Notes: generated from the sequence alone by a model not told the origin. A DNA stretch of 33,977 bases from a virus (IMGVR_UViG_3300025018_000080:1-33977), one strand, 5' to 3'. Counted from the stretch's first letter, positions 1 to 33,977 are shown. Numbers and translations: made by a program.

Positions 1-127
1 CTACTCTTACTCTTGAAATTAAAAGAGGGGATATTGAGCAAAAGGCATATCCTAATGCGGTGATTGAAAATTTAAAAATATCATCTGCTGTTAATCAATA
101 TGTGATGTTTGAGGCTGACATCAGAGC
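1..127. repeat. terminal direct repeat copy 1 (identical to 33851..33977); circular-assembly overlap
   Basis: All 127 nt at the left end recur exactly at the right end. An ORF reads straight through the join. Confidence 0.95.
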
Positions 128-9643: not shown

Positions 9644-9841
9644 ATGAGCAATGAACAAATCAAACAGGGGGCCTACGAGATAAAGAGAAAACTGCACACA
9701 GGCCTCCTCTCCTATGAGGAGGCGATAAAGAGCCAAGAGTTGCTGGCTTATGAAAGATTTTATAACAAGGTTGGAAAAGAGATTGCAAAAAAACACGGGA
9801 GAACATTTTACCCGTTTAATAAAATAAAATTTTTAAGATAA
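9644..9841 (+). CDS. hypothetical early protein
   Basis: 65-aa ORF, tightly packed with its neighbours. Confidence 0.45.
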   Translation: MSNEQIKQGAYEIKRKLHTGLLSYEEAIKSQELLAYERFYNKVGKEIAKKHGRTFYPFNKIKFLR

Positions 9842-9845
9842 CAAT

Positions 9846-10124
9846 ATGAGTGAATTTAATCACGATCAGGAATTAGAAAGACGATACCACCCGGAAAACT
9901 TTGACGGGTCAATCGCAGAGGCCGAGAGGGAGGCCGAGGGAAAAGAAAGGCAGGAGGATTTAAAAAAGCAGTTGTTTAAAGATTTATACGGGACAATGAT
10001 TGATGAGAAGTATTGCGAACTGCCGGACGAGGAAGTCGCAAAAATCGCACTTGGGGTTCTAACTTTATTTAAAAATAAATATCTTGGTTATGCAAAAGGC
10101 ATTGACTTGGAACAGTTACAATAA
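9846..10124 (+). CDS. hypothetical acidic early protein
   Basis: 92-aa ORF rich in Glu and Asp. Confidence 0.45.
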   Translation: MSEFNHDQELERRYHPENFDGSIAEAEREAEGKERQEDLKKQLFKDLYGTMIDEKYCELPDEEVAKIALGVLTLFKNKYLGYAKGIDLEQLQ

Positions 10125-10128
10125 AAGT

Positions 10129-10740
10129 ATGTTAAACAAAAAACAAAAACAAAAAAGAGAGAAGTTTAAAAGACAGATTTACATTTTAATAATAGCGGTC
10201 TGCGTGGCAAGTTTAGTTGTGAATTGCTTTGCAATTCGCTTGGGTCAAGACATCAGCAAAATTACACCCGTTGAAATTACTATCAATCGTCAAGAACCTA
10301 AACCGGAAACATTAAAGCAGGAGATTGAAAAGGTTGAGGAGGAGGAGTTGGCCGGTATGGAGTTGGCTATCAGAAATGCAAGCAAAGAGTTTAATGTCCC
10401 GGAGTGGCTGATTATCGGGATTGCTAATGCCGAGAGTGGATTGGGAAAATACTTTGCTGTTGATTACGATCGGGATAATTGCCATAACTGGTGGGGACTA
10501 AAGGGCGGTAATATGACCAAGAGAGCGGACGGAAGTTATTTGAGATGTTTTGTGAGTGATGAGGCAGGTGCAAGAACTGTTGCAAAGTCTTTAAGAAATT
10601 ACTATTTAGATGAGGGCCGAGATACCCCCGAAAAGATTTGCCAAAAGTGGATTGGCGGGAAGTTCGCGAATAAGGTTGAAAGCAACGGGAAAACCCATTG
10701 CGAAAATTGGGTCAACAATGTTAATAAATATAAAAAATAA
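10129..10740 (+). CDS. membrane-anchored peptidoglycan hydrolase-like protein (lytic transglycosylase / glucosaminidase-like)
   Basis: ATG 10129 is preferred over the track start. It has an N-terminal basic stretch plus TM segment (IYILIIAVCVASLVVNCFAI), and WLIIGIANAESGLGKYF resembles the catalytic Glu-Ser motif of SLT/glucosaminidase domains. Confidence 0.5.
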   Translation: MLNKKQKQKREKFKRQIYILIIAVCVASLVVNCFAIRLGQDISKITPVEITINRQEPKPETLKQEIEKVEEEELAGMELAIRNASKEFNVPEWLIIGIANAESGLGKYFAVDYDRDNCHNWWGLKGGNMTKRADGSYLRCFVSDEAGARTVAKSLRNYYLDEGRDTPEKICQKWIGGKFANKVESNGKTHCENWVNNVNKYKK

Positions 10741-10744
10741 TTTT

Positions 10745-10963
10745 ATGAAGTTAAAGGAAAAATTGGCCTACATAGAAAAAAATCATTTTGGGGAATGGTT
10801 TAAAATGAGGCAGGTGGTTGAGGCAGAGATGTCCGACAAGCAATCAATAATGTGCGTTTGCGGAAAATTGGCGACAGGACTTCACGAGGGATATTGCCAA
10901 AGATTTAAGGCAAAGGTAAATTCGGAAACTTTAAAAAGACTAAGTCACTTATTTAAAAAATAA
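10745..10963 (+). CDS. hypothetical small protein with a Cys/His cluster
   Basis: ATG 10745 (MKLKEKLAYIEK...). The upstream part of track ORF 10610..10963 overlaps the previous gene in another frame. Contains CVCG...H..YC. Confidence 0.45.
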   Translation: MKLKEKLAYIEKNHFGEWFKMRQVVEAEMSDKQSIMCVCGKLATGLHEGYCQRFKAKVNSETLKRLSHLFKK

Positions 10964-10967
10964 TTTT

Positions 10968-11507
10968 ATGGCTAAAGTAAAAATACCAACCAATGACGAG
11001 ATTTTAGCGGTCCTCGTCAAAGAGTTCGGAGTTGAGAACATTGATGTCAAAGACTGCTTTGAGATTGAGAGAATGATTGAGAAGTTGTCGGACGAAATGC
11101 TTATCAGCTATGACTATGATGTGATACAGAACACGGGGTCAAGTTGGCAACAGATTGCGGTTTATTCAAGCGACCTCGGGACGCTAATAACAGACGAGAG
11201 AGTAAAGCGTGATAAATTGGCTAACACTTGCCACGGGAAGTCAATCATTTTAGACGGGGACGCAGTCGGAGAGTTTGATGACATTGACTCTTTTATCGGG
11301 CAAGTTATCAGTTGGGAGATTGAGGCGAGAGAGTTGCTTGATGTTTTAAAGGTTGCGGTTAGCAACTCAACAAGCCTCGGGGTTATTTTAAAGAATGACG
11401 AAGTTTTAAGAGATGAAATAAAAAGGCGGGCGGTTGATTGTGTGGTCGGAGAAGTAACGGAAAAGCTACTTGCAAAAAAGATTGCTAATAAAATTTATAA
11501 GATTTAA
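10968..11507 (+). CDS. hypothetical acidic protein
   Basis: 179-aa ORF. Confidence 0.45.
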   Translation: MAKVKIPTNDEILAVLVKEFGVENIDVKDCFEIERMIEKLSDEMLISYDYDVIQNTGSSWQQIAVYSSDLGTLITDERVKRDKLANTCHGKSIILDGDAVGEFDDIDSFIGQVISWEIEARELLDVLKVAVSNSTSLGVILKNDEVLRDEIKRRAVDCVVGEVTEKLLAKKIANKIYKI

Positions 11508-18800: not shown

Positions 18801-19247
18801 ATGGATATAAATAAAACAATAAAAAGAAACCTATTTTTTAAAGTAGATTTTGACGGGAGGTATAAAAAAACCAAGAAAGGAATTAAGCAGGAAGTTAAAT
18901 TTTATTTGGTCGGGAGTGTGCCTGTTGTTATTGAATATGAGGACGAGAGCAAAGAGAGGTCAATTATAAATATACCTGTTGAAGTTAAACAAGACCCGTA
19001 TTTGAGGCTTATGCACGGGGCCAAGTATGAACACTTAAAAGATGTTAAAAAGGCGATCAAGGAAAAATTTAACCTTGATGTTGATTACAAGAAAGAGGCT
19101 GATGAGGTTGTTGGGAGGGCACAGAAAGCAATTAAGCAGGTGATTGATAAAGGTGAATTTATGGGAAAGAAAATCAAGAGCCTTTTAATAATTAACATAG
19201 GCAAACAAGAATATGAGCAAACTAAAAATAATACAAAAAAAGGTTAG
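18801..19247 (+). CDS. hypothetical protein
   Basis: 148-aa ORF. Confidence 0.45.
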   Translation: MDINKTIKRNLFFKVDFDGRYKKTKKGIKQEVKFYLVGSVPVVIEYEDESKERSIINIPVEVKQDPYLRLMHGAKYEHLKDVKKAIKEKFNLDVDYKKEADEVVGRAQKAIKQVIDKGEFMGKKIKSLLIINIGKQEYEQTKNNTKKG

Positions 19248-19818
19248 TGAGTTAAAGCCTGCGGAGTATAACCCCCGCAAGATTGGCACTAAGGAAAAAA
19301 TGGAATTGACGAAGTCACTTAAAAAGTTTGATTTTGTTGAGCCCATTGTTATCAATGTTAATCCGAAAAGGAAGGACATTGTTATTGGTGGACACCAAAG
19401 ATTAAAGATTGCTAAGGAGTTGGGAATGGTTGAAGTGCCTTGCGTTGGTGTTAATCTTGGGCCGAAAGAGGAGAAAGAGCTTAATTTAAGATTGAATAAA
19501 AACAAAGGCGAGTTTGATGTTGATTTACTTGCTGGCCTTGATGAGGATTTGTTAAGGGAGGTCGGATTTATGGAAAAAGAATTGAGCAAAGTTTTTGCTG
19601 ACGGATTAGAGAATGGAAAAGAGGAGGAGTTTAGCAGTGAGGTTTTAGAGGAAAATAATTATTTGGTTTTTACTTTTAATAATTCGGTTGATTGGTTGGC
19701 AATCTCCGATTTTTTTAAATTAAAATCTGTCTTGGCAAAAGACAGTAAGACTGATTATAAACGCAAAGGGGTTGGCCGTGTATTGGACGGCTCTGCTCTT
19801 TTGGATTTAATTAAATAA
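19213..19818 (+). CDS. ParB-like nuclease (ParB N-terminal / sulfiredoxin-fold) domain protein
   Basis: VSELKPAEYNPRKI...IVIGGHQRLKIAKELG matches the ParB N-domain boxes (GxxR). Confidence 0.6.
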   Translation: MSKLKIIQKKVSELKPAEYNPRKIGTKEKMELTKSLKKFDFVEPIVINVNPKRKDIVIGGHQRLKIAKELGMVEVPCVGVNLGPKEEKELNLRLNKNKGEFDVDLLAGLDEDLLREVGFMEKELSKVFADGLENGKEEEFSSEVLEENNYLVFTFNNSVDWLAISDFFKLKSVLAKDSKTDYKRKGVGRVLDGSALLDLIK

Positions 19819-20367: not shown

Positions 20368-21108
20368 ATGTTTACTATTGCTATACCAAGTTATAAAAGA
20401 GCAAATGATTGTTTGACTGCTAAAAAATTTAGTCGGGGAGTTATTTTTTGCCACGAGTTTGAAGTTGAGGAATACAAAAAACATAACAAAAACAAAATTG
20501 TTGTGATACCCGATGAGTTGGCAGGTAAAGGTATGGCCACGATCAGAAATTTTATTTTAGACAATACGAAAACCGAGCAAGTAGTTATGCTTGATGATGA
20601 CATTAAGCAATTTGGATATTACGAAAATTTGCAGATGTTTATAATGACCGAGGGGGAAGTTTATGATTTATTTGAGAATAATTTTAGAATGGCCATTGAA
20701 ATAAAAACAAAACTTTGGGGGCTCAATTTACAGAGTGACAAAAAGTTTTATCGGGAATATAGCCCGTTATCACTCTCCTCTGTAATTTTGGGCCCCTGTA
20801 TGGGGATAATCAAGGACGAGGATTTGAGATTTGATGTGAGGCTTGGACTTAAAGAGGATTATGATTATTCAATACAGGCATTAAGAAAATTTAGAAAGGT
20901 TTTAAGATTTAATAAATATCACTACATTTCTGCTCACATAAAAAAGAAAGGCGGTTGTGCCTCTTATCGGACTATGAAAAAAGAGGAGGACCAAGCTAAC
21001 CTCTTTCAAAAGAAATGGGGCAGACAGATTGTAGAAATTAAAAGGAAAACTCAAGGGGGCAATATGAGCATTAACCCCGTTGTGAGGATACCGATTAAAG
21101 GGATATGA
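20368..21108 (+). CDS. GT-A-fold glycosyltransferase-like protein
   Basis: ATG 20368 is preferred over GTG 20350. FTIAIPSYKR is an N-terminal strand typical of GT-A enzymes, VVMLDDDI is a DxD-type motif, and KEDYDY is a second acidic motif. Confidence 0.4.
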   Translation: MFTIAIPSYKRANDCLTAKKFSRGVIFCHEFEVEEYKKHNKNKIVVIPDELAGKGMATIRNFILDNTKTEQVVMLDDDIKQFGYYENLQMFIMTEGEVYDLFENNFRMAIEIKTKLWGLNLQSDKKFYREYSPLSLSSVILGPCMGIIKDEDLRFDVRLGLKEDYDYSIQALRKFRKVLRFNKYHYISAHIKKKGGCASYRTMKKEEDQANLFQKKWGRQIVEIKRKTQGGNMSINPVVRIPIKGI

Positions 21109-21338: not shown

Positions 21339-22103
21339 ATGAAAATTGGAATTTTAGGACTTGGCGAAGTGGGCCAAGCAATCAAGGAAGTATATTTGAA
21401 TAACCCAAAAGGGAAAGAGTTTGAAATAGTCGTTTGCGATAAAGCTAAAAATCTTTATCAATTTGAAGTGCCAAACGATGAGGGAGATGTTATGCAATAT
21501 TTACATATCTGTTTACCTTACAATGAGAAGTTTGAGGATTTGGTTGAGGCAGTATGTAAAAAGTATAACCCAGGGATTACTATTATTCACTCTACTGTTA
21601 AAGTCGGGACTACTAAAAGATTAAACGATAAAGTCGGGAGAGTGGTGCATAGTCCGATCAGGGGAGTTCACCCAAAACTGTATGAGGGAGTTAAGACCTT
21701 TGTTAAGTATATCGGCTATGATGAGTTTGATGTTGGGAATATGATTGCTACTCACTTCTCCGATGACTTGGGGTTAGATGTTGGAATGTTTGAAAATTCA
21801 AAGACCACTGAATTGGGCAAATTGTTATCTACTACCTATTACGGAATGGCGATTGCTTTTCATAACTATACAAATAAAATTTGCAAGGAGAATGGATTGG
21901 ACTTTGATAAAGTGATGACTGATTTTAATGGGACTTACAATGAGGGGTATAAGAAACTCGGCAAAGAGAATGTTATTAGACCAGTATTGTATGCCCCCGA
22001 GGACGGAAAGATTGGAGGCCATTGTATAATCCCTAATGCTAAAATATTGAAAGAGCAATTTGGAGATAGCGAAGTTTTAAAAATGATTTTAGATTTAGAA
22101 TAA
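21339..22103 (+). CDS. truncated nucleotide-sugar (UDP-glucose/GDP-mannose family) dehydrogenase-like protein
   Basis: N-terminal Rossmann motif KIGILGLGEVG, a central helix TTELGKLLSTTYYGMAIAFHN, and the catalytic-Cys motif IGGHCIIPN. At 254 aa it lacks the usual C-terminal nucleotide-sugar-binding domain. Confidence 0.55.
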   Translation: MKIGILGLGEVGQAIKEVYLNNPKGKEFEIVVCDKAKNLYQFEVPNDEGDVMQYLHICLPYNEKFEDLVEAVCKKYNPGITIIHSTVKVGTTKRLNDKVGRVVHSPIRGVHPKLYEGVKTFVKYIGYDEFDVGNMIATHFSDDLGLDVGMFENSKTTELGKLLSTTYYGMAIAFHNYTNKICKENGLDFDKVMTDFNGTYNEGYKKLGKENVIRPVLYAPEDGKIGGHCIIPNAKILKEQFGDSEVLKMILDLE

Positions 22104-22369: not shown

Positions 22370-22895
22370 TGGATTGCCAGAGATTATTATAAAGGGCAAA
22401 AAAAAACCAATAAAAAAGAATGTTGGCAAGGTTAAGGTTGTTAAAAAGGTTGTAAATAAGAATAATAAACTTAACAAGCCTAAGGGGGGAAAGAAAGGGA
22501 GAGCAAATGAGAATTATGATGATACAAAAATACAGGAAAGAATTGCTAAAAAAAAGGCTTTGGTTTTAGAGGGGTTGAAAGATAGTTTTGGAATAGTCAC
22601 CAATGCAATCGCTAAGGCTGATGTGAGCAATGTGACTTTTTATACTTGGTATAGAGATGACAAAGACTTTGCTAAGGGTGTTGATGATATACAGGGGCAG
22701 ATTGAGGTTATTGTTGATGATAGAATTAAACAGGGCATATTAAACAATGACGGGGCAATGATTAGATTTTATGCCTCTGCCTGTATGAAAAAATATAGAA
22801 ACAAATTAGGAATTGGACAAGGTGAGGATTTAGAGCCTTTTGAGTTCATAATCAAGACTAAAAAAATAACCGATGACGAAAATGCCGAGGATTGA
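22341..22895 (+). CDS. terS: terminase small subunit
   Basis: Immediately upstream of and overlapping TerL. It has an extremely Lys-rich N-terminus followed by the HTH-like segment GIVTNAIAKADVSNVTFYTWYRDDKDF. Confidence 0.6.
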   Translation: MPRKKENKNNGLPEIIIKGKKKPIKKNVGKVKVVKKVVNKNNKLNKPKGGKKGRANENYDDTKIQERIAKKKALVLEGLKDSFGIVTNAIAKADVSNVTFYTWYRDDKDFAKGVDDIQGQIEVIVDDRIKQGILNNDGAMIRFYASACMKKYRNKLGIGQGEDLEPFEFIIKTKKITDDENAED

Positions 22896-24264
22896 ATGGG
22901 AACAAACAGAAAAACAAGAACAGGCTTGGCACTACCTGACTGATGATACTACGACCGAAGTTATATTCGGCGGAGGTGCAGGCGGTGCCAAGTCTTTTTT
23001 GGGCTGTGCTTGGATTATCAGAATGGCGATAGGGTATAAAGGAACTCGTTGGCTTATTGGTAGAAAGAAATTAAAGAGATTGAAAGAAACCACATTGAAA
23101 ACATTTTTTGAGGTTTGTGCTATGTGGGGATTAAAACAAAATAAACATTTTAAATATAATGCTCAAGACGGAGTTATTAAATTTGCTAATGGGAGTGAGG
23201 TGTTGTTGGCTGATTTGGCCCACCAACCAAGTGACCCAAATTACGATGAGCTTGGGTCGTTGGAATTAACAGGGGCTTTTATTGATGAGGTTAACCAAAT
23301 TACTTTTAAGGCGTGGGAAGTTATTAACTCCCGTATTCGTTTTAAATTAGATGAGTATGGATTGATACCGAAAATATTGGGAACTTGTAACCCGTCTAAG
23401 GGGTGGGTTTATACTTATTTTTACAAACCTTTTAAAGATAAATGCCAAGATGTTGGCAAGGCTTTTATTCGGGCCCTTGCAAAGGATAATCCGTTTATAT
23501 CTAAACACTACATCAATCAATTAAAAAGAATTAAAGACAAGGCAACGAGAGAGAGATTGCTAAATGGTAATTGGGAGTATGATGATGACCCAGCTTGCTT
23601 GTTTGAGTTAGATGTAATACAAGACCAGTTTACTACCAAGGTTGATGACAAAAAAGATAGGTGGATTACTGGCGATGTTAGTAGAAAGGGGCGAGATAAT
23701 ATGCCTATTGGTATTTGGCACGGATTACAATTAAAGAAAGTTATTGTTATACCTTATGATATTAGAAAGAATACTGCTAAGAGTGCCGAGTTTATAATCA
23801 AGACCGCACAGAGAGAGGGAGTGAGAAGTGGAAAGATTATTTTAGATGAGGACGGAGTTGGTGGTGGCGTGGTTGATAATATAAGGGGCTGTATTGGATT
23901 TATAAATGGCTCAAGCCCTGTTTTATCAAGACAAGAGCAGTTAGCTAAAAAGAGGGGAGAGCATTATACTAATTACGGGAACTTAAAAACCCAATGCTAT
24001 TTTAAATTAGCGGAAGTAATGGAGGCAGGAGATTTGGGGATTGACGGGGAGGCTTTTGATGTGCAGGCTAAAGATGATTACATTGAGGAGTTGGGACAGA
24101 TTAAGCAGAGAGATTTAGACAAAGACGGAAAGATTTATTTAGTTGGTAAAGATAAGATAAAAGAAAACATTGGACGATCTCCCGATTATTCGGATATGGT
24201 GATGATGAGAATGTTGCCACTTGTTAAGCCTAAGAGGGTGCTTGATATTATAACCCTTGACTAA
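22873..24264 (+). CDS. terL: terminase large subunit
   Basis: P-loop-like VIFGGGAGGAKSF, Walker B LTGAFIDEV, and a C-terminal nuclease-sized domain. 463 aa, upstream of the portal gene. Confidence 0.85.
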   Translation: MTKMPRIEWEQTEKQEQAWHYLTDDTTTEVIFGGGAGGAKSFLGCAWIIRMAIGYKGTRWLIGRKKLKRLKETTLKTFFEVCAMWGLKQNKHFKYNAQDGVIKFANGSEVLLADLAHQPSDPNYDELGSLELTGAFIDEVNQITFKAWEVINSRIRFKLDEYGLIPKILGTCNPSKGWVYTYFYKPFKDKCQDVGKAFIRALAKDNPFISKHYINQLKRIKDKATRERLLNGNWEYDDDPACLFELDVIQDQFTTKVDDKKDRWITGDVSRKGRDNMPIGIWHGLQLKKVIVIPYDIRKNTAKSAEFIIKTAQREGVRSGKIILDEDGVGGGVVDNIRGCIGFINGSSPVLSRQEQLAKKRGEHYTNYGNLKTQCYFKLAEVMEAGDLGIDGEAFDVQAKDDYIEELGQIKQRDLDKDGKIYLVGKDKIKENIGRSPDYSDMVMMRMLPLVKPKRVLDIITLD

Positions 24265-24298
24265 GGTGATGTTTTTTATTGCCGAGGTTTACAAAATA

Positions 24299-24307
24299 TG
24301 CTATAAT
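24299..24307 (+). promoter_or_regulatory. extended -10 promoter element TGcTATAAT (member 2)
   Basis: AAAATATGCTATAATAAAATTAC, 28 nt upstream of ATG 24336. Confidence 0.55.
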
Positions 24308-24335
24308 AAAATTACATAATAACTATATTAAAAAT

Positions 24336-26417
24336 ATGGGGCTATTAGATAAAATATTTAATCGTGGCGAGAAAAAAAGCGTGCCTTATTCGTTTTTTTA
24401 TAATTCGGGGATAATGTCAAACATTGTTACCCGTTCAGACGCCTTGGATTTTTACAAGTCTTGGGTTTATGCTTGTGTTACTAAGAGGTCAATGGGATTG
24501 GCTCAAATTGATTTCAAGGCATATAAATTAAAAGGCGATAAGGTTGTGGAGGTGTTAGAACACCCCGTTTTAGATTTACTTTACAGAGTTAACCCACAGA
24601 TGACTAAATTTAACTTTATTCAGTTATCTATTATTTATCGGGATTTGCTTGGTGCAAGCCCTTGGATTTTAGAGGGTGGAGATAAGAATGGGAAAAATCC
24701 TACTCAAATGTCTATTGCAAGACCAGAGTTTTTTAGAGCAGAAAGAGATAAGGACGGAAACATTACAAAATATGTTTATGAGATTGGAACTTATAAAAAA
24801 GAATTTTCTACTAATCAAGTTATTTTCTTAAAAAATTATAATCCGAAAAATCCTGACAAAGGGATTGGAGTTTTGGAGGCTGTAAGACAGACTGCTGAAA
24901 ATGATGACTATATGTTGCAGTCAAATAATAATCTTTTGAAAGAGGGTGCGATCTCAAGTGGCTTTTTAGAAACCGAGGAGATATTGGATAGCAAAGAAGT
25001 TAAGAGATTGGAAAAGAAAGCCAAGGCTAAAATGGCAGGATATGAAAATGCCCATAAAATTCAGATATTACAGGGAGGTATGAAATTTAAACCGAATGTT
25101 ATACCACCGAGAGATTTGGAGTTTATTGAGGGGAGAAAACTTAACCGAGATGAGATTGCTGGGATTTTTGGTGTGCCAAAATCTCTTTTGACTTTTGATG
25201 ATGTAAACAGGGCCTCTGCTCAAGCAGGAGAATATCAATTTAACAAATGGACTCTTGAACCTTTGGCTACTGAAATATGCGAGCAGTTGAATGAGTTTTT
25301 AGTGCCGAAGTTTGATGATGATGTTTGGTTAGACTTTGAGCCTCTTGCTAAGGAGGACGAGGAGTTGTCTATTAGGGGCAAGGAGGCAAGTGTTAATAAA
25401 TGGAAAACTATAAATGAAGTTAGAGAAATGGACGGATTGGGTGCTATATCGGGAGGAGATTATATTTATATGCCTTTTTCTACTTTGCCAATGGTCGGAG
25501 GAGAAAAGAAAGGAGTTAACGATGTTTTGAAAATCGGGAGTGCCCGTGCTAAAGATGAGGGCAGAGTTGATTTGAAAAAAGAGAGATACATTAAGAAAAG
25601 AATTTTAAGCAGAAATTATCGCAACAAGCAATTAGTCAATCGTGCCAGTAATAAGGCTAACGAATTGTTAGAGGGAAAAAAGAGAATAGTTTTGAAACTC
25701 GTTAACCAAAAGGCTGACGAGGTAAAAAAAAAATTAGGATTGACTGATGAGATGATTGACACTTGGTATAAAGCAAGAATGAAAGAGGAGGAAAGTTTAG
25801 AGGGGATTTGGAAAAATGGATTTAAAAAGTTCTTTAAAGAGCAAGAGAAAAGATTTATAACTGCTTTAGAGGAAAACAAAAAAGGAGTTGCTCAAGAGTA
25901 TGGGATTGATGTTGCAGAGGAGTTGGGGGCTACTGTTGAGGTTATAAGCCCGTTGATGTATGAAACAGTTATGCGAGGAGTTAACCAAGCAAGTGAATTG
26001 GTCGGACAACCTGCTATTGCAGACTTTGAATTTTTAAGAGAGTGGCTTAATAAAGTGGGAGAGGAGATTGGTGAGAATATCAATAACACCACGATCACCG
26101 CATTTGATGAAACAATCAGACAAGGACTTGCAGAGGGTGAGGGGATTGGAGAATTAAAAAAGAGAGTGAGTGAGGTGTTTGATTTCGCTACTGATACCCG
26201 TGCCGAGATGATTGCGAGAACTGAAACCGCAAGAGGTATTACCGAGGCCCACAGACAGACTTATGAGTATTATGGATTTATAGATGTGGAGTGGTTGTTA
26301 AGCCCAGGGGCTTGCTCGGAGTGTATTGCAAAGAAAGGGAATAGTTGGACCACTAAGAGCATACAGGGAGAGATACCAGTTCACCCAAATTGCAAATGCG
26401 ATTTTACACCATTATAA
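24336..26417 (+). CDS. portal protein fused to a Mu F / SPP1 gp7-like head morphogenesis domain
   Basis: ATG 24336 (MGLLDKIFNRG...) is preferred because the track start 24279 is TTG and spans the promoter. The N-terminal ~400 aa look like an HK97-type portal. The C-terminus ARTETARGITEAH...IPVHPNCKCDF is the Mu F signature (HPNC[KR]C). Confidence 0.75.
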   Translation: MGLLDKIFNRGEKKSVPYSFFYNSGIMSNIVTRSDALDFYKSWVYACVTKRSMGLAQIDFKAYKLKGDKVVEVLEHPVLDLLYRVNPQMTKFNFIQLSIIYRDLLGASPWILEGGDKNGKNPTQMSIARPEFFRAERDKDGNITKYVYEIGTYKKEFSTNQVIFLKNYNPKNPDKGIGVLEAVRQTAENDDYMLQSNNNLLKEGAISSGFLETEEILDSKEVKRLEKKAKAKMAGYENAHKIQILQGGMKFKPNVIPPRDLEFIEGRKLNRDEIAGIFGVPKSLLTFDDVNRASAQAGEYQFNKWTLEPLATEICEQLNEFLVPKFDDDVWLDFEPLAKEDEELSIRGKEASVNKWKTINEVREMDGLGAISGGDYIYMPFSTLPMVGGEKKGVNDVLKIGSARAKDEGRVDLKKERYIKKRILSRNYRNKQLVNRASNKANELLEGKKRIVLKLVNQKADEVKKKLGLTDEMIDTWYKARMKEEESLEGIWKNGFKKFFKEQEKRFITALEENKKGVAQEYGIDVAEELGATVEVISPLMYETVMRGVNQASELVGQPAIADFEFLREWLNKVGEEIGENINNTTITAFDETIRQGLAEGEGIGELKKRVSEVFDFATDTRAEMIARTETARGITEAHRQTYEYYGFIDVEWLLSPGACSECIAKKGNSWTTKSIQGEIPVHPNCKCDFTPL

Positions 26418-26544: not shown

Positions 26545-27378
26545 ATGAGTAAAAAAATTCAGACCGAGGCAAAGGCTGATGTAAAAATCAATATACCTGT
26601 TAAGTTTAAAATCATTGAGAGTAAGGCTGACGGGCAAAAGGGAATTATTGAGGCGTATGTGTCTATTTTTGACAATGTTGACCTTGTTGGCGATATTATC
26701 AAGAGAGGTGCGTTTGCTGAAAGCCTTGCAAAGAAATTGCCAAAAGGTGTTTGGGCTCATAATTGGGACGAGCCTATTGCTAAGACCTTGGAGGCCCGTG
26801 AGGACGAAAAGGGGCTTTATATTCGTGGACAGTTTATTGAGGGCGTGCAGAAAGCAGACGAGGCCTATAAACTGATTAAAGAGGGAGTTATTGACGAGTT
26901 TTCAATCGGATTTAGAATATTGGGTTATGAGTGGAGTGATGACGACCCCGATGTAAGAATTATTACAAAGGCCCGTTTATACGAATGGTCACCAGTTCTT
27001 GCAGGTGCTAATCCCGATACTGAATTGATTAGTATTAAAGACGATCAGCCGAAAGAGGAAAAAGAAAAGAAAGATGATGAGGAAAAAGAAACCGAGGAAG
27101 TAGAGGAGGAGAAAAAAATTGACTTCGTTAAGGTAGATGAAAAAAGTGGAACTATTAAATTGTTTTACAAGGACGGGGAGGAAAAGAAAACGGAAGTCTA
27201 TAAAATGAGTGATAAATTTAAAAAATATCAAAGTGAGTTAAAGGCTCACAAAACAAAGGTCGGCACTAATAATGGAGAGGGCGATAGCAACCCTAATAAA
27301 AAAATCCTCCGTATTAGACAAGTAGCAAAACAAAATCTTAAAGCAAGTCAATACTTGCTTAGGATTACTAAAAATTAA
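26545..27378 (+). CDS. HK97-family prohead protease with a Lys/Glu-rich C-terminal extension
   Basis: VSIFDNVDLVGDIIKRGAF, WAHNW (His) and EFSIGFRI (Ser) match the S78 prohead protease pattern. Residues from about 170 to 277 are charged and low-complexity (KEEKEKKDDEEKETEEVEEEKK). Confidence 0.8.
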   Translation: MSKKIQTEAKADVKINIPVKFKIIESKADGQKGIIEAYVSIFDNVDLVGDIIKRGAFAESLAKKLPKGVWAHNWDEPIAKTLEAREDEKGLYIRGQFIEGVQKADEAYKLIKEGVIDEFSIGFRILGYEWSDDDPDVRIITKARLYEWSPVLAGANPDTELISIKDDQPKEEKEKKDDEEKETEEVEEEKKIDFVKVDEKSGTIKLFYKDGEEKKTEVYKMSDKFKKYQSELKAHKTKVGTNNGEGDSNPNKKILRIRQVAKQNLKASQYLLRITKN

Positions 27379-27389
27379 CTTATAAACCT

Positions 27390-28436
27390 ATGGAAAAAGA
27401 ACAAGTGAAAGAGGTTACTATGGACGAATTAAAGTCTATAATGGCCGAGGGGGTTAAAGAAATAATCCCTGCTCTAAAAAGTGAAATTTTAGAGGAAATG
27501 AAAGGCAGTTTAAAAGATGAGGTTAAAGTTAATAGCGATGAGGAGAAAGTTGAAAAGTCCGCGGATTTTATTCGTAAGGCTTGCAACGGAGAACTTGAAA
27601 AGAAAGCTATTGACTCTACAACCGACTCGTTCGGGTATACAGTGCCTACCGAACTTAGTGACTTTATCTTAAAAGCCAAAGATAAAATTGCGAAAATGCG
27701 TAAATTGGCTTTCGTATTTCAAATGGCAGGAAATTTTGACCTACCAACCGAGGGAACTGGCGTGACTGGTTACTGGGTGGGTGAAAATGAAACCATTACT
27801 GAAAGCAACCCTACAATCGGCAAGAAAACTCTTGTTGATTACTATTTAGCGGCTCGTGTGTTAATCCCACGAAAGTTGTTAAATACCTCTGCTTATAACA
27901 TTGTGAACTATGTTGGTGAACTATGTGCTCGTAAGTTGAGAGATACCGAGGAAACTGCTTTTGTTGCAGGTGACGGTTCAAGCAAACCTACTGGTTTACG
28001 ATCAGCAAGTTTAACTGGCTCACAGGCTCAAGCAAGCACTTCTTTGGCTTATAACGATATAATCAATCTATTTTATGCTCTACCTGAACAGTATAGAGAA
28101 AATGCAGTTTTCTTAACTTCTGCTCTTGGTATGAAAGCGATTAGAAAGATTGTTGACGATAATGGTGTGCCAATCTTTGATTTGCGTGACCAAAAAATGT
28201 TTAATAGACCTGTTATTGAAAGCTCTGACATTCCTGAAAACCTTGGAAGTTCTGCCAATACTACTGAAATTTATTTTGGTGATATGTGGTATTACTGGAT
28301 TAAGGACGGGGAAAAAATGTTTGTGGATACTGACAAAGTATTGTCTAAACTACAAATTGAGTTAGTAGTTGCTCAAGCAGTTGACGGAGTTTACACTCTA
28401 CCTGCCGCTTGTAAGAAAATGACTGGCGTTAAATAG
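27390..28436 (+). CDS. major capsid protein, HK97 fold, with an N-terminal delta-like coiled-coil region
   Basis: Follows the protease gene. FGYTVPTELSDFIL...GYWVGENE...AFVAGDGSSKPTGL matches the Phage_capsid family pattern. 348 aa. Confidence 0.85.
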   Translation: MEKEQVKEVTMDELKSIMAEGVKEIIPALKSEILEEMKGSLKDEVKVNSDEEKVEKSADFIRKACNGELEKKAIDSTTDSFGYTVPTELSDFILKAKDKIAKMRKLAFVFQMAGNFDLPTEGTGVTGYWVGENETITESNPTIGKKTLVDYYLAARVLIPRKLLNTSAYNIVNYVGELCARKLRDTEETAFVAGDGSSKPTGLRSASLTGSQAQASTSLAYNDIINLFYALPEQYRENAVFLTSALGMKAIRKIVDDNGVPIFDLRDQKMFNRPVIESSDIPENLGSSANTTEIYFGDMWYYWIKDGEKMFVDTDKVLSKLQIELVVAQAVDGVYTLPAACKKMTGVK

Positions 28437-28442
28437 CCTTAT

Positions 28443-28468
28443 GGCTCATCTCCTTTCGGAGGTGGGCC
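28443..28468 (+). terminator. stable stem-loop after the capsid gene (terminator/attenuator or mRNA stabiliser)
   Basis: GGCTCATCTCC-tttc-GGAGGTGGGCC forms an 11-bp stem (two G-U pairs) with a tetraloop. Only a short TT follows. Confidence 0.5.
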
Positions 28469-28502: not shown

Positions 28503-28679
28503 ATGGCTAAAGCAAAAAATGAGGAAACAAACGAAAAATTGGACAAGGACATTGTTATCGTTCAATTTACAAAATCTTGGACACCCTATGTTAGAGGGGA
28601 AGTTGCGGGATTTAATAAGAAACTTGCGGAGAAGTTAATTGATAATGACATCGCAGAAGTTTATAAAAAATCTAAATAG
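28503..28679 (+). CDS. small capsid-proximal protein (58 aa), absent from the ORF track; paralogous to the N-terminus of the next gene
   Basis: ATG 28503 to TAG 28677-28679. IVIVQFTKSWTPYVRGEVAGFNKKLAEKLIDNDIAE aligns without gaps to KVLVKYIKGLETYVPGDIRAVDVKEYQELKKKGIVE in the 28686 product. Confidence 0.5.
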   Translation: MAKAKNEETNEKLDKDIVIVQFTKSWTPYVRGEVAGFNKKLAEKLIDNDIAEVYKKSK

Positions 28680-28685
28680 AATTAT

Positions 28686-30170
28686 ATGGCCAAGGTATTA
28701 GTCAAATATATCAAAGGCCTTGAAACTTATGTGCCTGGGGATATTCGGGCGGTAGATGTTAAGGAATACCAAGAACTGAAAAAAAAGGGGATTGTAGAAA
28801 AGACGGAAATGCTTGAGGAAGTCTACAACCCCGATGAGATTGAGAGAGATAAATTGAAAGGGCATAATATTCTCGGCAAAAAATACAAACTCGGAGTTGT
28901 TGATGTTGTTGTGCCTACTATGGACAAGAACGGAGTTAAGAGTTTAAAAGTTCTTAAAAAATATCAGAAACAAGGAAAGATTAGTTTTGAGTTAATGGAA
29001 AGAAAATTTAGCCAAGAGGTCGGAGGCTTTGCCAAGTCTTGTAATGACGGGGCTAAATTAAATGAGGGATTGGGAGAGTTTATTTTATTCTTGAATGATG
29101 ATGTTGAGTTATCAGAAAGCGGATTTTTTCATAACCTTATTAAGCCCTTTGAGGACGAGGAGGTGGGAATGGTTGGAACTTCCTGCTCTGAAACCTCTTG
29201 GGGCTTGAATGGGTCTATTATGTGTATTCGCAGAGAGTTGTTTGAGATGATTGGGGGATTTGATGAGAATTATTTTTTTATGTTTGAGGATAATGATTTA
29301 TGCGAGAATGTAAAAAGACGAGGTTATAAAATAGTTGTTAGCGAGGCAAAGGCCAAGCACGAGGGCGGTGAGAGTGTAAACATAGCCTCGGAGTTTTGGC
29401 GTAGTAATTACTACAATGGCCTCGCTTATTTTAATAGGAAATGGCGAGGAGATAAAAGAATTATTGGCTCTATTATTGCAGGGAACGAGGGTGACAGATA
29501 TATGAGCAGGGTGATTATTGATTTATTTAAAAGAAATTTAGTTGATGAGGTTGTGGTTGTGTGCGATCAGTCGGACAAAAAGACTGTTGATGAGTTAAAG
29601 GAATTACAAAAATATTATTTGGTTACAGTTCATTATCATAATTTTAAATTATTCGGAGAGGCTGAAAATTTATTGAGAGAGAGGGCGATACAATATGCGA
29701 TTTCAAAAAACCCGTTCGGGATTATACCGATTGATTGTGATGAGTTCTTTGATGAGGAGATTAACAGATATGCTTTGATGACTTTGCTTAATCAAGGAGT
29801 TGCGTTTGATTTCGTGTTGGCCCATTATTGGGGAGATGAGGAGAGTGTGAGAATTGACGGAGTTTTTGCTCATCAAAAGAATGTGCGTTTATTTAGATAT
29901 TGCCCAGAGCAATCACAGAAATTCTTTGATAGGAATTTGCATTGTGGCTCTGTGCCTAAATATGCCTATGAGCAGAGAAAGGATACCGAGTTTATTTTAA
30001 AACATTTCGGGTATGTAAATGCTAAAGATGTTAAAGACAAAAAGGAGAGGCAGATGAAACACGACCCGAAAATGCTTTTGGAAAACCCCGACCTTTATAA
30101 CAGAATGATGAAAGAGGGGGAGGTTGTGAAATTTAATAAAGTTAAGTTTATGGAGATATGGAAACGATAA
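28686..30170 (+). CDS. two-domain family-2-like glycosyltransferase with a small N-terminal capsid-proximal-type domain
   Basis: Domain 1 has FILFLNDDVEL (DxD) and GGFDENYFFMFEDNDLCENVKRRGYKIV, a classic GT2 block. Domain 2 has IIAGNEGDRYMSRVI...VVVVCDQSDKKT...IIPIDCDEFF, a second GT-A DxD. Confidence 0.75.
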   Translation: MAKVLVKYIKGLETYVPGDIRAVDVKEYQELKKKGIVEKTEMLEEVYNPDEIERDKLKGHNILGKKYKLGVVDVVVPTMDKNGVKSLKVLKKYQKQGKISFELMERKFSQEVGGFAKSCNDGAKLNEGLGEFILFLNDDVELSESGFFHNLIKPFEDEEVGMVGTSCSETSWGLNGSIMCIRRELFEMIGGFDENYFFMFEDNDLCENVKRRGYKIVVSEAKAKHEGGESVNIASEFWRSNYYNGLAYFNRKWRGDKRIIGSIIAGNEGDRYMSRVIIDLFKRNLVDEVVVVCDQSDKKTVDELKELQKYYLVTVHYHNFKLFGEAENLLRERAIQYAISKNPFGIIPIDCDEFFDEEINRYALMTLLNQGVAFDFVLAHYWGDEESVRIDGVFAHQKNVRLFRYCPEQSQKFFDRNLHCGSVPKYAYEQRKDTEFILKHFGYVNAKDVKDKKERQMKHDPKMLLENPDLYNRMMKEGEVVKFNKVKFMEIWKR

Positions 30171-30655
30171 ACAGAGATGATTATTTAAAAGCACTTTCAA
30201 AAGACGAATATTACCGAGGGAGGTGGGGATACTATGAGGCTGTAATTGATTTTATAAAGGGGATTGAGTTTGATAATTGCTTGGAGATTGGTTGCAAAAG
30301 TTTGCCAATTATCAAGGGCAGTCAAACTATGGATATTGAAAGAAAGGCGGGGCAGATTTTGACCTACGAATATAATGCGACTAAGTTGCCCTATGATTTC
30401 ATTAAGGACAAGCAGTTTGATTTATTAGTTGCCTTGCAGACCTTGGAACATTTACACCCCTTGCAAAAAGAAGTGTTTGGAGAGTGGAAAAGGATTGCTA
30501 AAAATATCGTTATCTCTTTGCCTTATATGTGGCATTGCCCTAATGATGTAATGCACCATAATATTACTATACCGATGATTGAGGAATGGACAGGAATGAA
30601 ACCCGATAAAATGATAATTTCAAATTGTAGAATAATATTAAAATATGGATTATAA
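30158..30655 (+). CDS. class I SAM-dependent methyltransferase-like protein
   Basis: CLEIGCKS resembles motif I, and FDLLVALQTLEHL...WKRIAKNIVISLP resembles the Methyltransf_11 pattern. Confidence 0.55.
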   Translation: METINRDDYLKALSKDEYYRGRWGYYEAVIDFIKGIEFDNCLEIGCKSLPIIKGSQTMDIERKAGQILTYEYNATKLPYDFIKDKQFDLLVALQTLEHLHPLQKEVFGEWKRIAKNIVISLPYMWHCPNDVMHHNITIPMIEEWTGMKPDKMIISNCRIILKYGL

Positions 30656-31292
30656 AAAAATACTGGTTATCACGATCACCTTTGACAGATTGGAAACCAC
30701 TAAACAATATTTAAAAGAATTGAAAGAAAAAGCAGGATACCCGTTTGAGCATATTGTGATTGATAATGGCTCGGAGGACGATACTGTTAAATGGCTCAAG
30801 GAGAATAATTATACTGTTATTGAGAATGGTGAGAACTTGGGAATTATCGGGGCTTGGGTTAAAGCATACAGATTTGCTCTTGAGAGTGGATTTAAGCCCG
30901 ATTATGTCTTGAAGTATGATAATGATTGCGAGATAGCCACAGAGGGCATTTTGGCTGAAATAATGAAGTTCTATGAGGAGAATGGCGATAAGTATATTAC
31001 TGCCCCGTTGGATTTGGAGATATTGCCCGACTATATACCGCACATAGTTGACAAAAGGGATAAACTGGGGTCTTTCTCGGTTAGGATATGCACACATACA
31101 GGAGGAATGTTTACGGTTATACCAGTTGAGGCCTTTGATTTAATGGTTAAGCAAAACAATGGGCAAGGAGTTGCCAAAGATATTGAGAGGGGTGGATTTT
31201 GGCGAAAGAATGGCTATTTAAGTGTTTATTTAAAAGATTTAAAAACTTATCATAGAGGCCAAGGAAAAGGCAACGGAAAATATAAATTTTAA
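30645..31292 (+). CDS. family-2 glycosyltransferase
   Basis: KILVITITFDRLETTKQYLKEL...EHIVIDNGSEDDTVKWLKE...ENGENLGIIGAW is the canonical GT2 N-terminal region. Confidence 0.75.
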   Translation: MDYKKILVITITFDRLETTKQYLKELKEKAGYPFEHIVIDNGSEDDTVKWLKENNYTVIENGENLGIIGAWVKAYRFALESGFKPDYVLKYDNDCEIATEGILAEIMKFYEENGDKYITAPLDLEILPDYIPHIVDKRDKLGSFSVRICTHTGGMFTVIPVEAFDLMVKQNNGQGVAKDIERGGFWRKNGYLSVYLKDLKTYHRGQGKGNGKYKF

Positions 31293-31301
31293 TTTAAAAA
31301 T

Positions 31302-31889
31302 ATGATTACTAAAACAGAGTTCAAAAATTTTATAGATTTAACTTCTACCGCTTACGATAGTGCGATAGATTTGATTGTGGCAGGAGTTAATAAGTTTGTT
31401 GAGGGATATTGCCAAAACAAACTGCAAGCAGGAGAAGTCACGGAATACTTTAACGGGGACGATATTATTGAGGAGGGTGACCAGATATTTTTAACGAATA
31501 GGGTTAATCTTTCGGGGGTTGCTGTTTATTATAATTCGGGGACAGAGGCGAGCCCGTCTTGGGTCGCAGAGGATAGAGATAACTATGCCTTGCTTTCTAA
31601 TGAGGGAATAATCAAATTGAATTTTACCCGTGAAAATTTGGGCGTTCAATCGGGTTATAATAATTACAAGGTTGTTTATACCGCAGGATATACTTTATCG
31701 GGTGACTCGGCTGATGTGCCAAGTGATTTGAAATTGGCTTGCTTGAAGTTGGCGAGTGGAGTTTATAATAAAAGAAAATCCGAGGGCGAAAGCTCGGAGG
31801 GATTGGACGGGGCTAATGTTAACTTTGTTACTGCTTTGAGTGATGAAGTTAAGGCAATGCTTAGTCCGTATAAAAGTAAAAATTTATGA
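31302..31889 (+). CDS. head-tail connector (gp6-like) protein
   Basis: ITKTEFKNFIDLTSTAYDSAIDLIVAGVNKFVEGYC is typical of gp6-like connector proteins. It is the first gene of the connector block. Confidence 0.55.
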   Translation: MITKTEFKNFIDLTSTAYDSAIDLIVAGVNKFVEGYCQNKLQAGEVTEYFNGDDIIEEGDQIFLTNRVNLSGVAVYYNSGTEASPSWVAEDRDNYALLSNEGIIKLNFTRENLGVQSGYNNYKVVYTAGYTLSGDSADVPSDLKLACLKLASGVYNKRKSEGESSEGLDGANVNFVTALSDEVKAMLSPYKSKNL

Positions 31890-33513: not shown

Positions 33514-33977
33514 ATGAGTGAAATTTTAAAAAGAAAATTTAACATCGGGATTGGCAAAGAAAGTGTTAGAGGGACTAAGGTTGCCCCCGCTATTTGGTTA
33601 AAGCCTACAAGTGAGGATTTTAATGACCAAGCGGAGGTCGTGGCCACAGAGAGGTCAATGGGAATTATTGAGGATAGTGATGACCAAGTTGTTGTTAAAA
33701 AATTTGCCTCGGGTGTTATCGGAGGAGAAATTTTTGACAAGTCTTTTGGTTACTTCTTGCTTGGTGCTCTTGGCCAAGTGTCAAGTGCTGAAAGTGCTGA
33801 CTCGGGTGTTTACGATCATACATTTACAGTTTTACAATCTGCACAACACCCTACTCTTACTCTTGAAATTAAAAGAGGGGATATTGAGCAAAAGGCATAT
33901 CCTAATGCGGTGATTGAAAATTTAAAAATATCATCTGCTGTTAATCAATATGTGATGTTTGAGGCTGACATCAGAGC
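33514..33977 (+). CDS. major tail (tube) protein, 5' portion; runs off the window end and continues at base 128 after circularisation
   Basis: ATG 33514 (MSEILKRKFNIGIGKESVRGT...) has no stop before the window end and is in frame with 60..638 through the 127-bp repeat. It is absent from the ORF track because it is unterminated. Confidence 0.7.
   Translation, partial: MSEILKRKFNIGIGKESVRGTKVAPAIWLKPTSEDFNDQAEVVATERSMGIIEDSDDQVVVKKFASGVIGGEIFDKSFGYFLLGALGQVSSAESADSGVYDHTFTVLQSAQHPTLTLEIKRGDIEQKAYPNAVIENLKISSAVNQYVMFEADIR
33851..33977. repeat. terminal direct repeat copy 2 (identical to 1..127)
   Basis: See copy 1. Confidence 0.95.

Follow-up and report, generated by a model that had tools for sequence, protein, structure and literature searches.

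A two-domain glycosyltransferase fronted by a copy of a small head-module protein: a candidate virion-glycosylation locus in an environmental phage clade

Genes at the capsid-connector junction

The window analyzed here is a 33,977-nucleotide stretch of viral DNA (IMGVR_UViG_3300025018_000080) that holds a complete, circular genome of 33.85 kb with a 127-bp terminal repeat. The phage lineage is Shine-Dalgarno-poor, and some relatives read TGA as a glycine codon. Pfam and PHROG sweeps over all ORFs of at least 60 aa detected no integrase in the complete genome; since no integrase/repressor module was found and all genes lie on one strand, the phage is probably virulent. The features discussed below are the following.

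20368..21108, + strand: TAGT-family glycosyltransferase (PF20691, E 5.7e-19; phrog_842, E 1e-26)
21339..22103, + strand: nucleotide-sugar-dehydrogenase-like protein, 254 aa, with Rossmann and central domains and a GGHC motif
27390..28436, + strand: major capsid protein (MCP), HK97 fold, 348 aa (PF05065, E 1.5e-49; phrog_10)
28443..28468, + strand: RNA hairpin with an 11-bp stem and without a U-tract, directly after the MCP stop codon
28503..28679, + strand: small58 (58 aa), a head-module protein encoded by a conserved ORF between MCP and cassette
28686..30170, + strand: two-domain glycosyltransferase (GT), 494 aa
30158..30655, + strand: methyltransferase-like protein, 165 aa, atypical; accessory, varying between relatives
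30645..31292, + strand: 215-aa GT2 enzyme (the short GT2), DND motif; PF00535, E 2.2e-14; accessory
31302..31889, + strand: head-tail connector (gp6-like/head completion protein; PF05135, E 1.7e-11; PF24163; phrog_442)

The three genes of the cassette overlap by 13 nt (494-aa and 165-aa genes) and 11 nt (165-aa and 215-aa genes), and the connector forms their downstream border. Their coordinates, the end of MCP at 28436 and the start of the connector at 31302 all agree with the original prediction, and the GT assignments of the 494-aa and 215-aa proteins are upheld by Pfam profile matches. The same prediction took capsid and connector to be normally contiguous and the cassette to be inserted between them, and on both counts it has to be revised: the conserved small58 ORF, which it overlooked, normally fills this junction, and the cassette is a conserved feature of the clade rather than a recent insertion. 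All three cassette proteins are soluble, and the absence of transmembrane segments noted earlier is confirmed by a maximum Kyte-Doolittle 19-residue mean of at most 1.12. The hairpin behind MCP (MFE -23.4 kcal/mol, z -4.3) was equalled in stability by 0 of 200 shuffled sequences and was not called by the terminator scan; it probably lowers the expression of small58 and the enzymes relative to MCP, or uncouples it.

Two sugar-related genes lie at a distance from the cassette. The TAGT-family GT is a firm profile match (PF20691, 69.3 bits against a cutoff of 27.5), and a link between it and the cassette is doubtful; its known relatives work on sugars attached to DNA, but no enzyme for the acceptor base turned up in this complete genome. 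The 254-aa protein, previously described as a sugar dehydrogenase, does match dehydrogenase profiles (PF00984, 27 bits, cutoff 25.4; TIGR03026, E 9e-10), but it is truncated: only profile positions 106-282 of 413 are matched, and it hence lacks the C-terminal UDP-binding domain. Among the surveyed relatives the gene was detected in L004 only. The proposal that about 4.1 kb, or one-eighth of the genome, serves carbohydrate chemistry is therefore weak, for the sum includes both of these genes. A uronic-acid-containing, methylated glycan is likewise weakly founded, because this sum pools the TAGT-family GT with a truncated dehydrogenase-like protein.

The core enzyme and its relation to small58

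The 494-aa enzyme consists of three modules, the first of which had gone unnoticed.

28686..28811, + strand: N-terminal module (aa 1-42), a small58 paralogue and proposed docking or substrate-recognition domain
28881..29450, + strand: GT2 (GT-A fold) domain 1 (aa ~66-255; PF13641, PF00535)
29451..30170, + strand: GmaR-like GT-A domain 2 (aa ~256-494; profile match to GmaR, 22ao_A)

Domain 1 is recognized over residues ~88-222 by PF13641 (E 1e-11, 45.8 bits, cutoff 27) and PF00535 (E 3.5e-9, 37.3 bits, cutoff 23.3), and residues N137-D138-D139, E201, D202, D204 and H225 are invariant in 36 homologues. Domain 2, with 15.5 bits against PF13704, stays below the Pfam threshold of 27.5, but a comparison of its profile with PDB sequences retrieves GmaR (22ao_A, E 5.1e-5, 25 bits), aligning query residues 255-462 with residues 10-201 of 204 and matching the IDADE and HYGY motifs; D350, D352, E353, H419 and H440 are invariant across the 36 homologues. 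The two GT-A domains previously assigned to this protein are thus backed by Pfam in the first case and by the GmaR profile match, the invariant D350, D352 and E353 and the AF2 model in the second. Judging from these residues, both catalytic motifs of the enzyme are intact, and sugar transfer by this enzyme and by the 215-aa GT is predicted from profiles and motifs. The AF2 model of the whole chain (pLDDT 90.5) places a floppy linker behind the N-terminal module, at aa ~41-60, where confidence is low (pLDDT 57 in block 41-50).

The relation between the N-terminal module and small58 is apparent at two levels. An hhalign comparison of the small58 family with the enzyme N-termini returns a probability of 98.7% (E 4.4e-16) over 39 columns, and the same beta-beta-alpha-beta elements are present in both AF2 models, the core of small58 being modelled with pLDDT above 90. 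The module is also retained by an enzyme whose gene has another location (L005/P0037). No Pfam family matches small58, and its family encompasses 1835 representative proteins at E <= 1e-3, present as single or as two to four tandem copies. Six unrelated contexts were inspected, and in each of them the family member is encoded between MCP and connector: phiE125 (gp7), Marinobacter AS1 (gp7), a Burkholderia-type context and the metagenomic L052-L054. The closest fold likenesses, through weak Foldseek matches, are to the N-terminal domain of ribosomal protein L9 (NTL9) and to the GINS B-domain. NTL9 is an rRNA-binding domain, and this likeness speaks against virion glycosylation. In one relative a small58-type domain is fused to a Rho_N/SAP-like DNA-binding motif (P0185).

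The gene position of small58 is that of lambda gpFI (MCP, then FI, then connector), and each of the two is a small domain bearing a flexible tail. Lambda FI is a DNA-packaging chaperone that links terminase-DNA complexes to proheads, and its C-terminal domain reportedly binds the head protein gpE. The fold resemblance to gpFI (2lsm) is nonetheless weak (TM 0.6, Foldseek E 1.0, rank 23), poorer than that to NTL9 and the GINS B-domain, and the two show no sequence similarity (hhalign probability 0.1% against the gpFI C-terminal domain). On these values the resemblance to the gpFI C-terminal domain is not significant, which weighs against virion glycosylation, and gpFI was rejected as a homologue of small58 and of the enzyme N-terminus.

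Conservation of the locus and variation of its accessory genes

The two-domain GT is held at the MCP-connector junction in about nine lineages, at 45-88% identity, and the order MCP, small58, two-domain GT, optional accessory genes and connector is shared by the window and its relatives (L002, L004, L007, L010, L012, L016, L017, L018, L039/41/45 and L044). All MCP relatives of at least 68% identity whose locus reaches past MCP show this order. The enzyme occupies the same junction in these lineages but not throughout: in L005 it stands away from the capsid genes, in the order ParB-GT-terS, and in L019 and L021 it lies upstream of the terminase. Both arrangements argue against virion glycosylation.

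The enzymes that accompany the two-domain GT are far less constant. The helper set may be missing altogether, may consist of the atypical methyltransferase-like protein and GT2 seen in the window, or may pair a canonical methyltransferase with a P-loop kinase-like protein; the helper proteins are soluble in every variant. The short GT2 (PF00535, 54.2 bits; acidic motif YDNDCE) is present in L002, L004, L010, L016 and L017 and absent from L012, L018, L007, L005 and L044, and 13 of its 14 homologues lie on contigs whose size is consistent with this phage lineage. Judged as a class I methyltransferase, the L010 orthologue of the 165-aa protein passes the PF08241 threshold with 25.5 bits, whereas the window protein, at 20.8 bits, falls just short of the cutoff (21.2) and matches in the motif II-III region only. 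The glycine-rich, SAM-binding motif I (E/DxGxGxG) is missing from the latter, which reads LEIGC-KS, 9 residues being absent in comparison with DFGAGLGKYG in L004, where the same slot holds a Methyltransf_23 protein (28.3 bits), and with DIGCNIGGMG in L016. This swapping of accessory enzymes suggests diversifying selection on the glycan.

Target of the glycosyltransferases

Because the front end of the enzyme copies a small head-module protein, the phage particle itself is probably what the virus coats with sugar. Late, cytoplasmic glycosylation of phage head proteins, in line with the virion glycosylation originally proposed, is the best-supported reading of the locus, with the target deduced indirectly, and we give it an even chance of being right. 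It is favoured by the conservation of the enzyme in the head module, its small58-like N-terminus and the relation of domain 2 to GmaR, and further by the invariant catalytic centres, the solubility of the three proteins, the lack of integrase and membrane Gtr-type proteins in the Pfam and PHROG sweeps, and the mycobacteriophage precedent. Domain 2 aligns end to end with the ~180-residue GT domain of Listeria monocytogenes GmaR, and the DxDE and HYGY motifs coincide. Flagellin is the protein to which GmaR attaches GlcNAc, and a separate TPR domain is proposed to recognize it (PMC9638930); by analogy domain 2 may act on a protein (Ser/Thr) acceptor. Both proteins combine a catalytic GT-A domain with a separate protein-interaction module proposed to choose the substrate. 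They differ in that GmaR bears TPR repeats and is also an anti-repressor, whereas the phage enzyme has one more GT domain and an N-terminal module of NTL9-like fold.

The process might run as follows. The N-terminal domain of ~42 aa, duplicated from small58 and flexibly tethered to the enzyme, would dock on the partner of small58, most plausibly MCP or the procapsid, which makes MCP the candidate glycan acceptor. The GT domains would then act in sequence, one attaching the first O-linked sugar to the acceptor protein, the other extending it. Where present, the short GT2 would attach another sugar; the methyltransferase-like protein, or the canonical methyltransferase with the P-loop kinase-like protein, would cap or decorate the glycan, so that differing accessory sets would yield lineage-specific glycans. 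The virion-protein acceptor, the order of the GT domains, the donor sugars and the pay-off, which might be shielding or adhesion, are all conjectural in this scheme. A further point against it is that the C-termini of MCP and of the tail-tube protein carry no obvious Ser/Thr-rich tails.

The TAGT-family GT in the same genome also tells against virion glycosylation, and it raises an alternative in which that enzyme, the two-domain GT and the short GT2 build an oligosaccharide on a modified DNA base as protection against restriction. The small58-like domain would then bind DNA or the packaging complex, in line with its NTL9-like (rRNA-binding) fold and the P0185 fusion, and the slot between ParB and terS taken by the enzyme in L005 is the one that the TAGT gene occupies in the window. 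In T6-like phages, members of the TAGT family (PF20691) attach a second glucose to glucosyl-5hmC (PMC13390438). The complete genome, swept with Pfam and PHROG over ORFs of at least 60 aa, is nevertheless devoid of any TET/JBP enzyme, thymidylate-synthase-like hydroxymethylase or DNA methyltransferase that could furnish the acceptor base, and L005 and L018, both of which carry the two-domain GT, showed no TAGT gene as far as they are sequenced. Moreover, in about nine lineages the enzyme gene lies in the late head operon and not among replication genes, and the sole solved sequence relative of domain 2 is a protein O-GT. We therefore deem DNA hypermodification unlikely.

A similarly low likelihood attaches to the view that the cassette acts in the cytoplasm on a glycopolymer of the host envelope (teichoic acid, LPS, capsule or S-layer glycan precursors) in the manner of prophage-encoded TarP, with the effect of blocking superinfection or of keeping progeny from adsorbing to debris. 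The soluble GT-A wall teichoic acid enzymes TarS, TarP and RmlT do appear among the Foldseek matches (ranks 38-49), the variable accessory enzymes recall the diversity of surface-glycan loci, and PHROG 841 (GtrB-like O-antigen conversion) weakly matches the 215-aa GT2 (E 1e-3). Gtr- and TarP-type GTs are phage-encoded GT-A enzymes that alter a surface glycan, but Gtr enzymes are membrane proteins and the others are carried by temperate phages near the integrase and att site, whereas the genes studied here sit in the head operon of a probably virulent phage and their products lack membrane-anchoring segments. Late expression from that operon would leave scant time for envelope remodelling, and an N-terminal domain derived from the head module would be left unexplained. 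A seroconverting, Gtr-type system in particular was rejected, given that there are neither transmembrane segments nor an integrase; Pfam and PHROG sweeps of the complete genome likewise revealed no membrane Gtr-type protein.

The N-terminal homology itself implies only that the enzyme shares a partner with small58 or associates with it, and the acceptor might accordingly be a protein other than the capsid (portal, connector, terminase or a host factor) or small58 itself, glycosylation having a regulatory or assembly role and not that of a surface coat. The bridging function of lambda FI at the same gene position and the SAP/Rho_N-like motif joined to a small58-type domain in P0185 fit such a role. 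A lineage-variable glycan made by three or four enzymes is, however, more typical of an exposed surface than of a regulatory mark, and nothing in the data points to any particular alternative acceptor, which renders this option improbable. Weaker still is the view of the enzyme as a bifunctional polysaccharide co-polymerase making an alternating disaccharide polymer, free or on some primer and possibly with GlcA supplied through the dehydrogenase-like protein encoded in the genome: two GT-A domains per chain are shared with K4CP (E. coli K4), PmHS2 (Pasteurella), LARGE1 and collagen LH3, and two-GT-A polymerases head the whole-chain Foldseek PDB matches (2z87, E 1e-12; 8vh8, E 6e-10), a point against virion glycosylation, but such matches are expected for any protein with two GT-A domains, TM-scores of 0.26-0.36 with rmsd of at least 12 Å suggest that the domain arrangement of K4CP-type polymerases is not shared, no common domain orientation emerges for the four proteins together (TM 0.21-0.36), the phage enzyme has an additional N-terminal domain and no membrane or export partners, the genome lacks export or priming machinery, and the dehydrogenase-like protein is incomplete and, among the surveyed relatives, was detected in L004 only.

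To our knowledge, virion-glycosylating phage enzymes have been demonstrated only in mycobacteriophages so far. As in the cassettes of Che8 (gp108-110 region), Corndog (gp35-38) and Myrna, the genes described here encode soluble GTs in or beside the structural operon, accompanied there by a methyltransferase and here by a methyltransferase-like protein, and the GT genes of the window are embedded in that operon. Corndog carries an O-methyltransferase and three GTs between portal and protease (PMC4351075). Glycosylated virion proteins are reported for these three phages, and capsid glycosylation is said, with reference to Freeman 2023, to protect virions from antibodies (PMC12363180). The parallel drawn earlier with mycobacteriophages is thus sound as regards position, but it does not extend to sequence: homology to the Che8, Corndog and Myrna enzymes was not found, which counts against virion glycosylation. 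A tblastn search of 50,697 phage records at E 1e-5 gave no match to the 494-aa protein, and the 215-aa GT2 matched only four unannotated faecal contigs among phage records. The present system differs further in joining two GT domains to a docking-type domain that is a copy of a head-module protein, and in belonging to another host lineage.

If virion glycosylation is confirmed, the presence of a conserved, non-homologous system in environmental phages of an unrelated clade would indicate that the sugar-coating of particles has evolved repeatedly. More tentatively, and at less than even odds, we propose that a copy of small58 has been turned into a targeting domain that brings the fused GT pair to the procapsid. 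No self-targeted enzyme of virion glycosylation would then have been described before outside the actinobacteriophages, and this one would belong to an uncultivated, Shine-Dalgarno-poor and partly TGA-recoded lineage. Such a fusion of a docking domain with two transferases would be a compact and testable design, and the homology of the docking domain to small58 opens an experimental route to the function of the small protein between MCP and connector in many siphophages. Were the targeting proposal true, it would provide the first functional handle on a very large, unannotated head-module family (the 1835 representatives mentioned above).

Two further observations, both in favour of virion glycosylation, concern the genes found with the enzyme. 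A BppU_N-like Ig-domain protein and a long fibre-like protein are additionally encoded at the junction in L002 and L010, which therefore collects genes for the capsid surface. The sets of GT, methyltransferase and kinase found in L016, L044 and L019 echo the flagellin glycan of C. difficile, which is reported to be GlcNAc carrying a phosphorylated N-methyl-threonine.

The head module of a complete phage genome

An exact direct repeat of 127 bp at the two ends of the window (1-127 and 33851-33977) identifies the contig as a complete, circularly assembled phage genome with 33,850 bp of unique sequence. All its genes lie on the + strand, and the tail-tube gene is divided between the window ends, with its C-terminal part at 60-638. 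The genome contains no tRNAs and no integrase or lysogeny module. A Shine-Dalgarno core 4-mer is found upstream of only 6 of the 52 genes, and a relative with 77% identity sits in an NCBI 'Bacteroidia bacterium' MAG (GCA_009930445.1); taken together, these observations fit, but do not prove, a Bacteroidota-like, Shine-Dalgarno-independent host. The head module is composed of the following genes:

22873-24264, +, TerL
24279-26417, +, portal-MuF fusion (712-aa ORF)
26545-27378, +, S78 protease
27390-28436, +, HK97-fold major capsid protein (MCP)
28503-28679, +, 58-aa ORF (small58)
28686-30170, +, 494-aa protein
30158-30655, +, 165-aa protein
30645-31292, +, 215-aa protein
31302-31889, +, gp6-like connector

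Here a single ORF holds both the portal and a Mu-F-like domain for head morphogenesis; in two relatives, L010 (3394-5483) and L012 (5600-7695), they are separate ORFs. Directly 3' of the MCP stop codon lies a very stable hairpin (28443-28468; -23.4 kcal/mol, z -4.3) without a U-tract, which may set the ratio of MCP to downstream expression or stabilise the mRNA; promoter and terminator scans over 26.4-32 kb gave signals at or below shuffled expectation.

The original prediction described a three-gene glycosylation cassette between capsid and connector. Its coordinates for the three genes and for the junction are correct, but it missed both the 58-aa gene and the modular make-up of the 494-aa protein. 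Overlaps of 13 and 11 nt link the cassette genes, which match the genome in GC content (37.1% versus 38.3%) and encode proteins without a transmembrane segment, as had been proposed (maximum KD19 of 1.12). The glycosyltransferase (GT) assignments also hold, domain 1 of the 494-aa protein being a GT2 domain by Pfam, while the 165-aa protein, read as a methyltransferase, scores just below threshold and is missing the Gly-rich SAM loop. PHROGs offers no family for the 494-aa and 165-aa proteins, PADLOC returns no defence-family matches for the cassette, and NCBIfam yields only generic, far sub-threshold GT matches (EpsD, MftF). A phmmer search of PDB sequences with the 215-aa GT2 retrieves only spurious designer-PPR matches.

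A head-module domain on a two-domain glycosyltransferase

By sequence comparison, a dedicated head-module domain is present as a copy in the 494-aa enzyme. Residues 4-42 of the enzyme share homology with the 58-aa product of the gene directly upstream (hhalign probability 98.7%, E 4.4e-16), and predicted secondary structure is identical for the two. The small58 family numbers 1835 representatives at E <= 1e-3 and is covered by no Pfam model. Among the best 150 of these, members are single domains of 50-100 aa or, often, 2-4 tandem copies with low-complexity linkers and acidic or basic disordered tails (P0208-P0221), and in a single fusion (P0185, from locus L052) the domain is attached to a Rho_N/SAP-like motif. 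In every context inspected (Burkholderia phiE125 gp7, Marinobacter AS1 gp7 and three metagenomic phages that differ in terminase and protease types), the small58 gene lies directly between MCP and connector. We infer from this that the enzyme's N-terminal domain docks on the capsid. What is new and testable is the fusion of a putative docking domain to a glycosyltransferase, and the link that it establishes with a huge, uncharacterised head-module family.

The family shows weak matches to DUF7210 and Gins51_C, and Foldseek likens its fold to two known domains, the N-terminal one of ribosomal protein L9 and the B-domain of GINS. The position between MCP and connector is also that of lambda FI, a packaging chaperone that connects terminase-DNA complexes with proheads. 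The analogy is a lead only, because gpFI homology of small58 was rejected at the level of sequence, where similarity is absent, and fold similarity is non-significant (Foldseek E 1.0).

Strong matches to the 494-aa protein comprise 46 homologues (41-88% identity, E 1e-93 or better), mostly full-length and, where contigs are long enough for judgement, located on phage-like contigs of ~20-36 kb. A tblastn search of 50,697 phage records found no cultured-phage relative of the enzyme, and the MCP matches cultured phages at 35% identity or less. AF2 models the enzyme with confidence (pLDDT 90.5, pTM 0.87): a small N-terminal unit of beta-beta-alpha-beta form (residues 3-39) is followed by a low-confidence linker and by two GT-A domains that are Rossmann-like. 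Across 36 aligned homologues, N137-D138-D139, E201, D202, D204 and H225 are invariant in domain 1, as are D350, D352, E353, H419 and H440 in domain 2. The latter matches Pfam PF13704 below threshold and, as a sole phmmer query, finds no match among PDB sequences; the family profile, nonetheless, matches Listeria GmaR over the full extent of the GmaR GT domain (E 5e-5), and the IDADE and HYGY motifs coincide. GmaR transfers GlcNAc onto flagellin, recognition of which has been proposed for a separate TPR domain (PMC9638930).

Conservation of the junction and its accessory genes

Some nine lineages, 45-88% identical, share the order MCP, small58, two-domain GT, connector (the window, L004, L010, L002, L044, the L012 group, L016/L017, L018 and L007). 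Homologous cassettes hence do occupy this junction in relatives, but three loci carry the enzyme elsewhere: in L005 (47% identity) it lies between ParB and terS, with a small58 homologue remaining behind MCP, and in L019 and L021 it is found with a methyltransferase and a kinase upstream of the terminase. In L052, a relative sharing the head module, the junction lacks the enzyme. The two-domain GT is encoded by all MCP relatives of >= 68% identity in which the locus continues beyond MCP; it is therefore a clade-wide feature and not a recent insertion. The genes that accompany it vary among lineages.

Accessory sets accompanying the two-domain GT
None: L012 group, L018, L007
Methyltransferase-like protein and 215-aa GT2: window, L004, L010
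GT2 alone: L017
GT2 and extra head-surface genes: L002
Canonical ~205-aa methyltransferase and ~155-aa P-loop kinase-like protein: L044; L016 (with GT2 too); L019/L021

Between GT cassette and connector, L002 (8130-11129) and L010 (10666-13016) encode a BppU_N-like Ig-domain protein and a fibre-like protein of 590-655 aa, both candidates for head fibres or decoration proteins that might therefore serve these phages as alternative glycan acceptors. L007 has no separate small58 gene, and a frameshift splits its two-domain GT (9645-11098) in the poly-A/Lys-rich tract that separates GT domain 1 from the N-terminal domain; misassembly, a pseudogene or programmed frameshifting could account for this. 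The relatives in L019 (9884-11308) and L021 (1981-3405), on contigs of 30% GC, are intact only if TGA is a sense codon. Database translations of P0042, P0043 and P0045 give W at conserved Gly positions, pointing to code 25 (TGA = Gly); the hosts of the L019/L021 phages would be of Gracilibacteria or Absconditabacteria type. In the window itself, TGA terminates 7 genes.

Candidate acceptors and competing readings

In the best-supported mechanism, to which we would give an even chance, a self-targeting enzyme would glycosylate a head protein late and in the cytoplasm, the glycan being elaborated in a lineage-specific manner. A head protein is the candidate, if unproven, target, and no Ser/Thr-rich acceptor tails were seen on MCP or tail tube. 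The cassette would thereby work like the virion-glycosylation systems of mycobacteriophages (PMC4351075, PMC12363180), but by tblastn it shares no homology with their enzymes. Two further carbohydrate genes bear on the alternatives:

20368-21108, +, TAGT-family GT
21339-22103, +, nucleotide-sugar-dehydrogenase-like protein (254 aa; Rossmann and central domains, GGHC motif)

The TAGT family adds, in T6-like phages, a second glucose onto glucosyl-5hmC in DNA (PMC13390438). That the window enzymes might likewise hypermodify DNA seems unlikely, as the genome lacks any enzyme making the acceptor base: a whole-genome search revealed no TET/JBP, hydroxymethylase or DNA methyltransferase. The TAGT protein, without match among PDB sequences by phmmer, is indeed a carbohydrate gene, as originally proposed, but should not simply be added to the cassette. 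The sequenced portions of L005 and L018, both of which encode the two-domain GT, gave no TAGT match. The predicted sugar dehydrogenase is dehydrogenase-like (phmmer against PDB sequences giving only a marginal Cap5O match, E 0.09), yet UDP-GlcA production is uncertain because the C-terminal UDP-binding domain is absent. The window also encodes, at 19213-19818, a stand-alone ParB_N-domain protein that aligns with PADLOC 'MTase_II' in the N-terminal part of the latter (E 3e-19) and has no methyltransferase domain; in L005, a ParB_N-domain protein lies directly upstream of the two-domain GT.

Modification of the host envelope is likewise improbable, being a poor match for a phage that is apparently virulent and for a head operon that is late, and it appears quite unlikely that the enzyme modifies a non-capsid partner of small58. 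Whole-chain Foldseek places the two-GT-A enzymes K4CP, PmHS2, LH3 and LARGE1 first and also retrieves the peptide S-glycosyltransferases ThuS and SunS, but TM-scores of only 0.2-0.36 indicate shared domain content alone, which makes a K4CP-like polymerase very unlikely. In BFVD, the model matches uncharacterised multi-GT proteins from uncultured phages and giant viruses.
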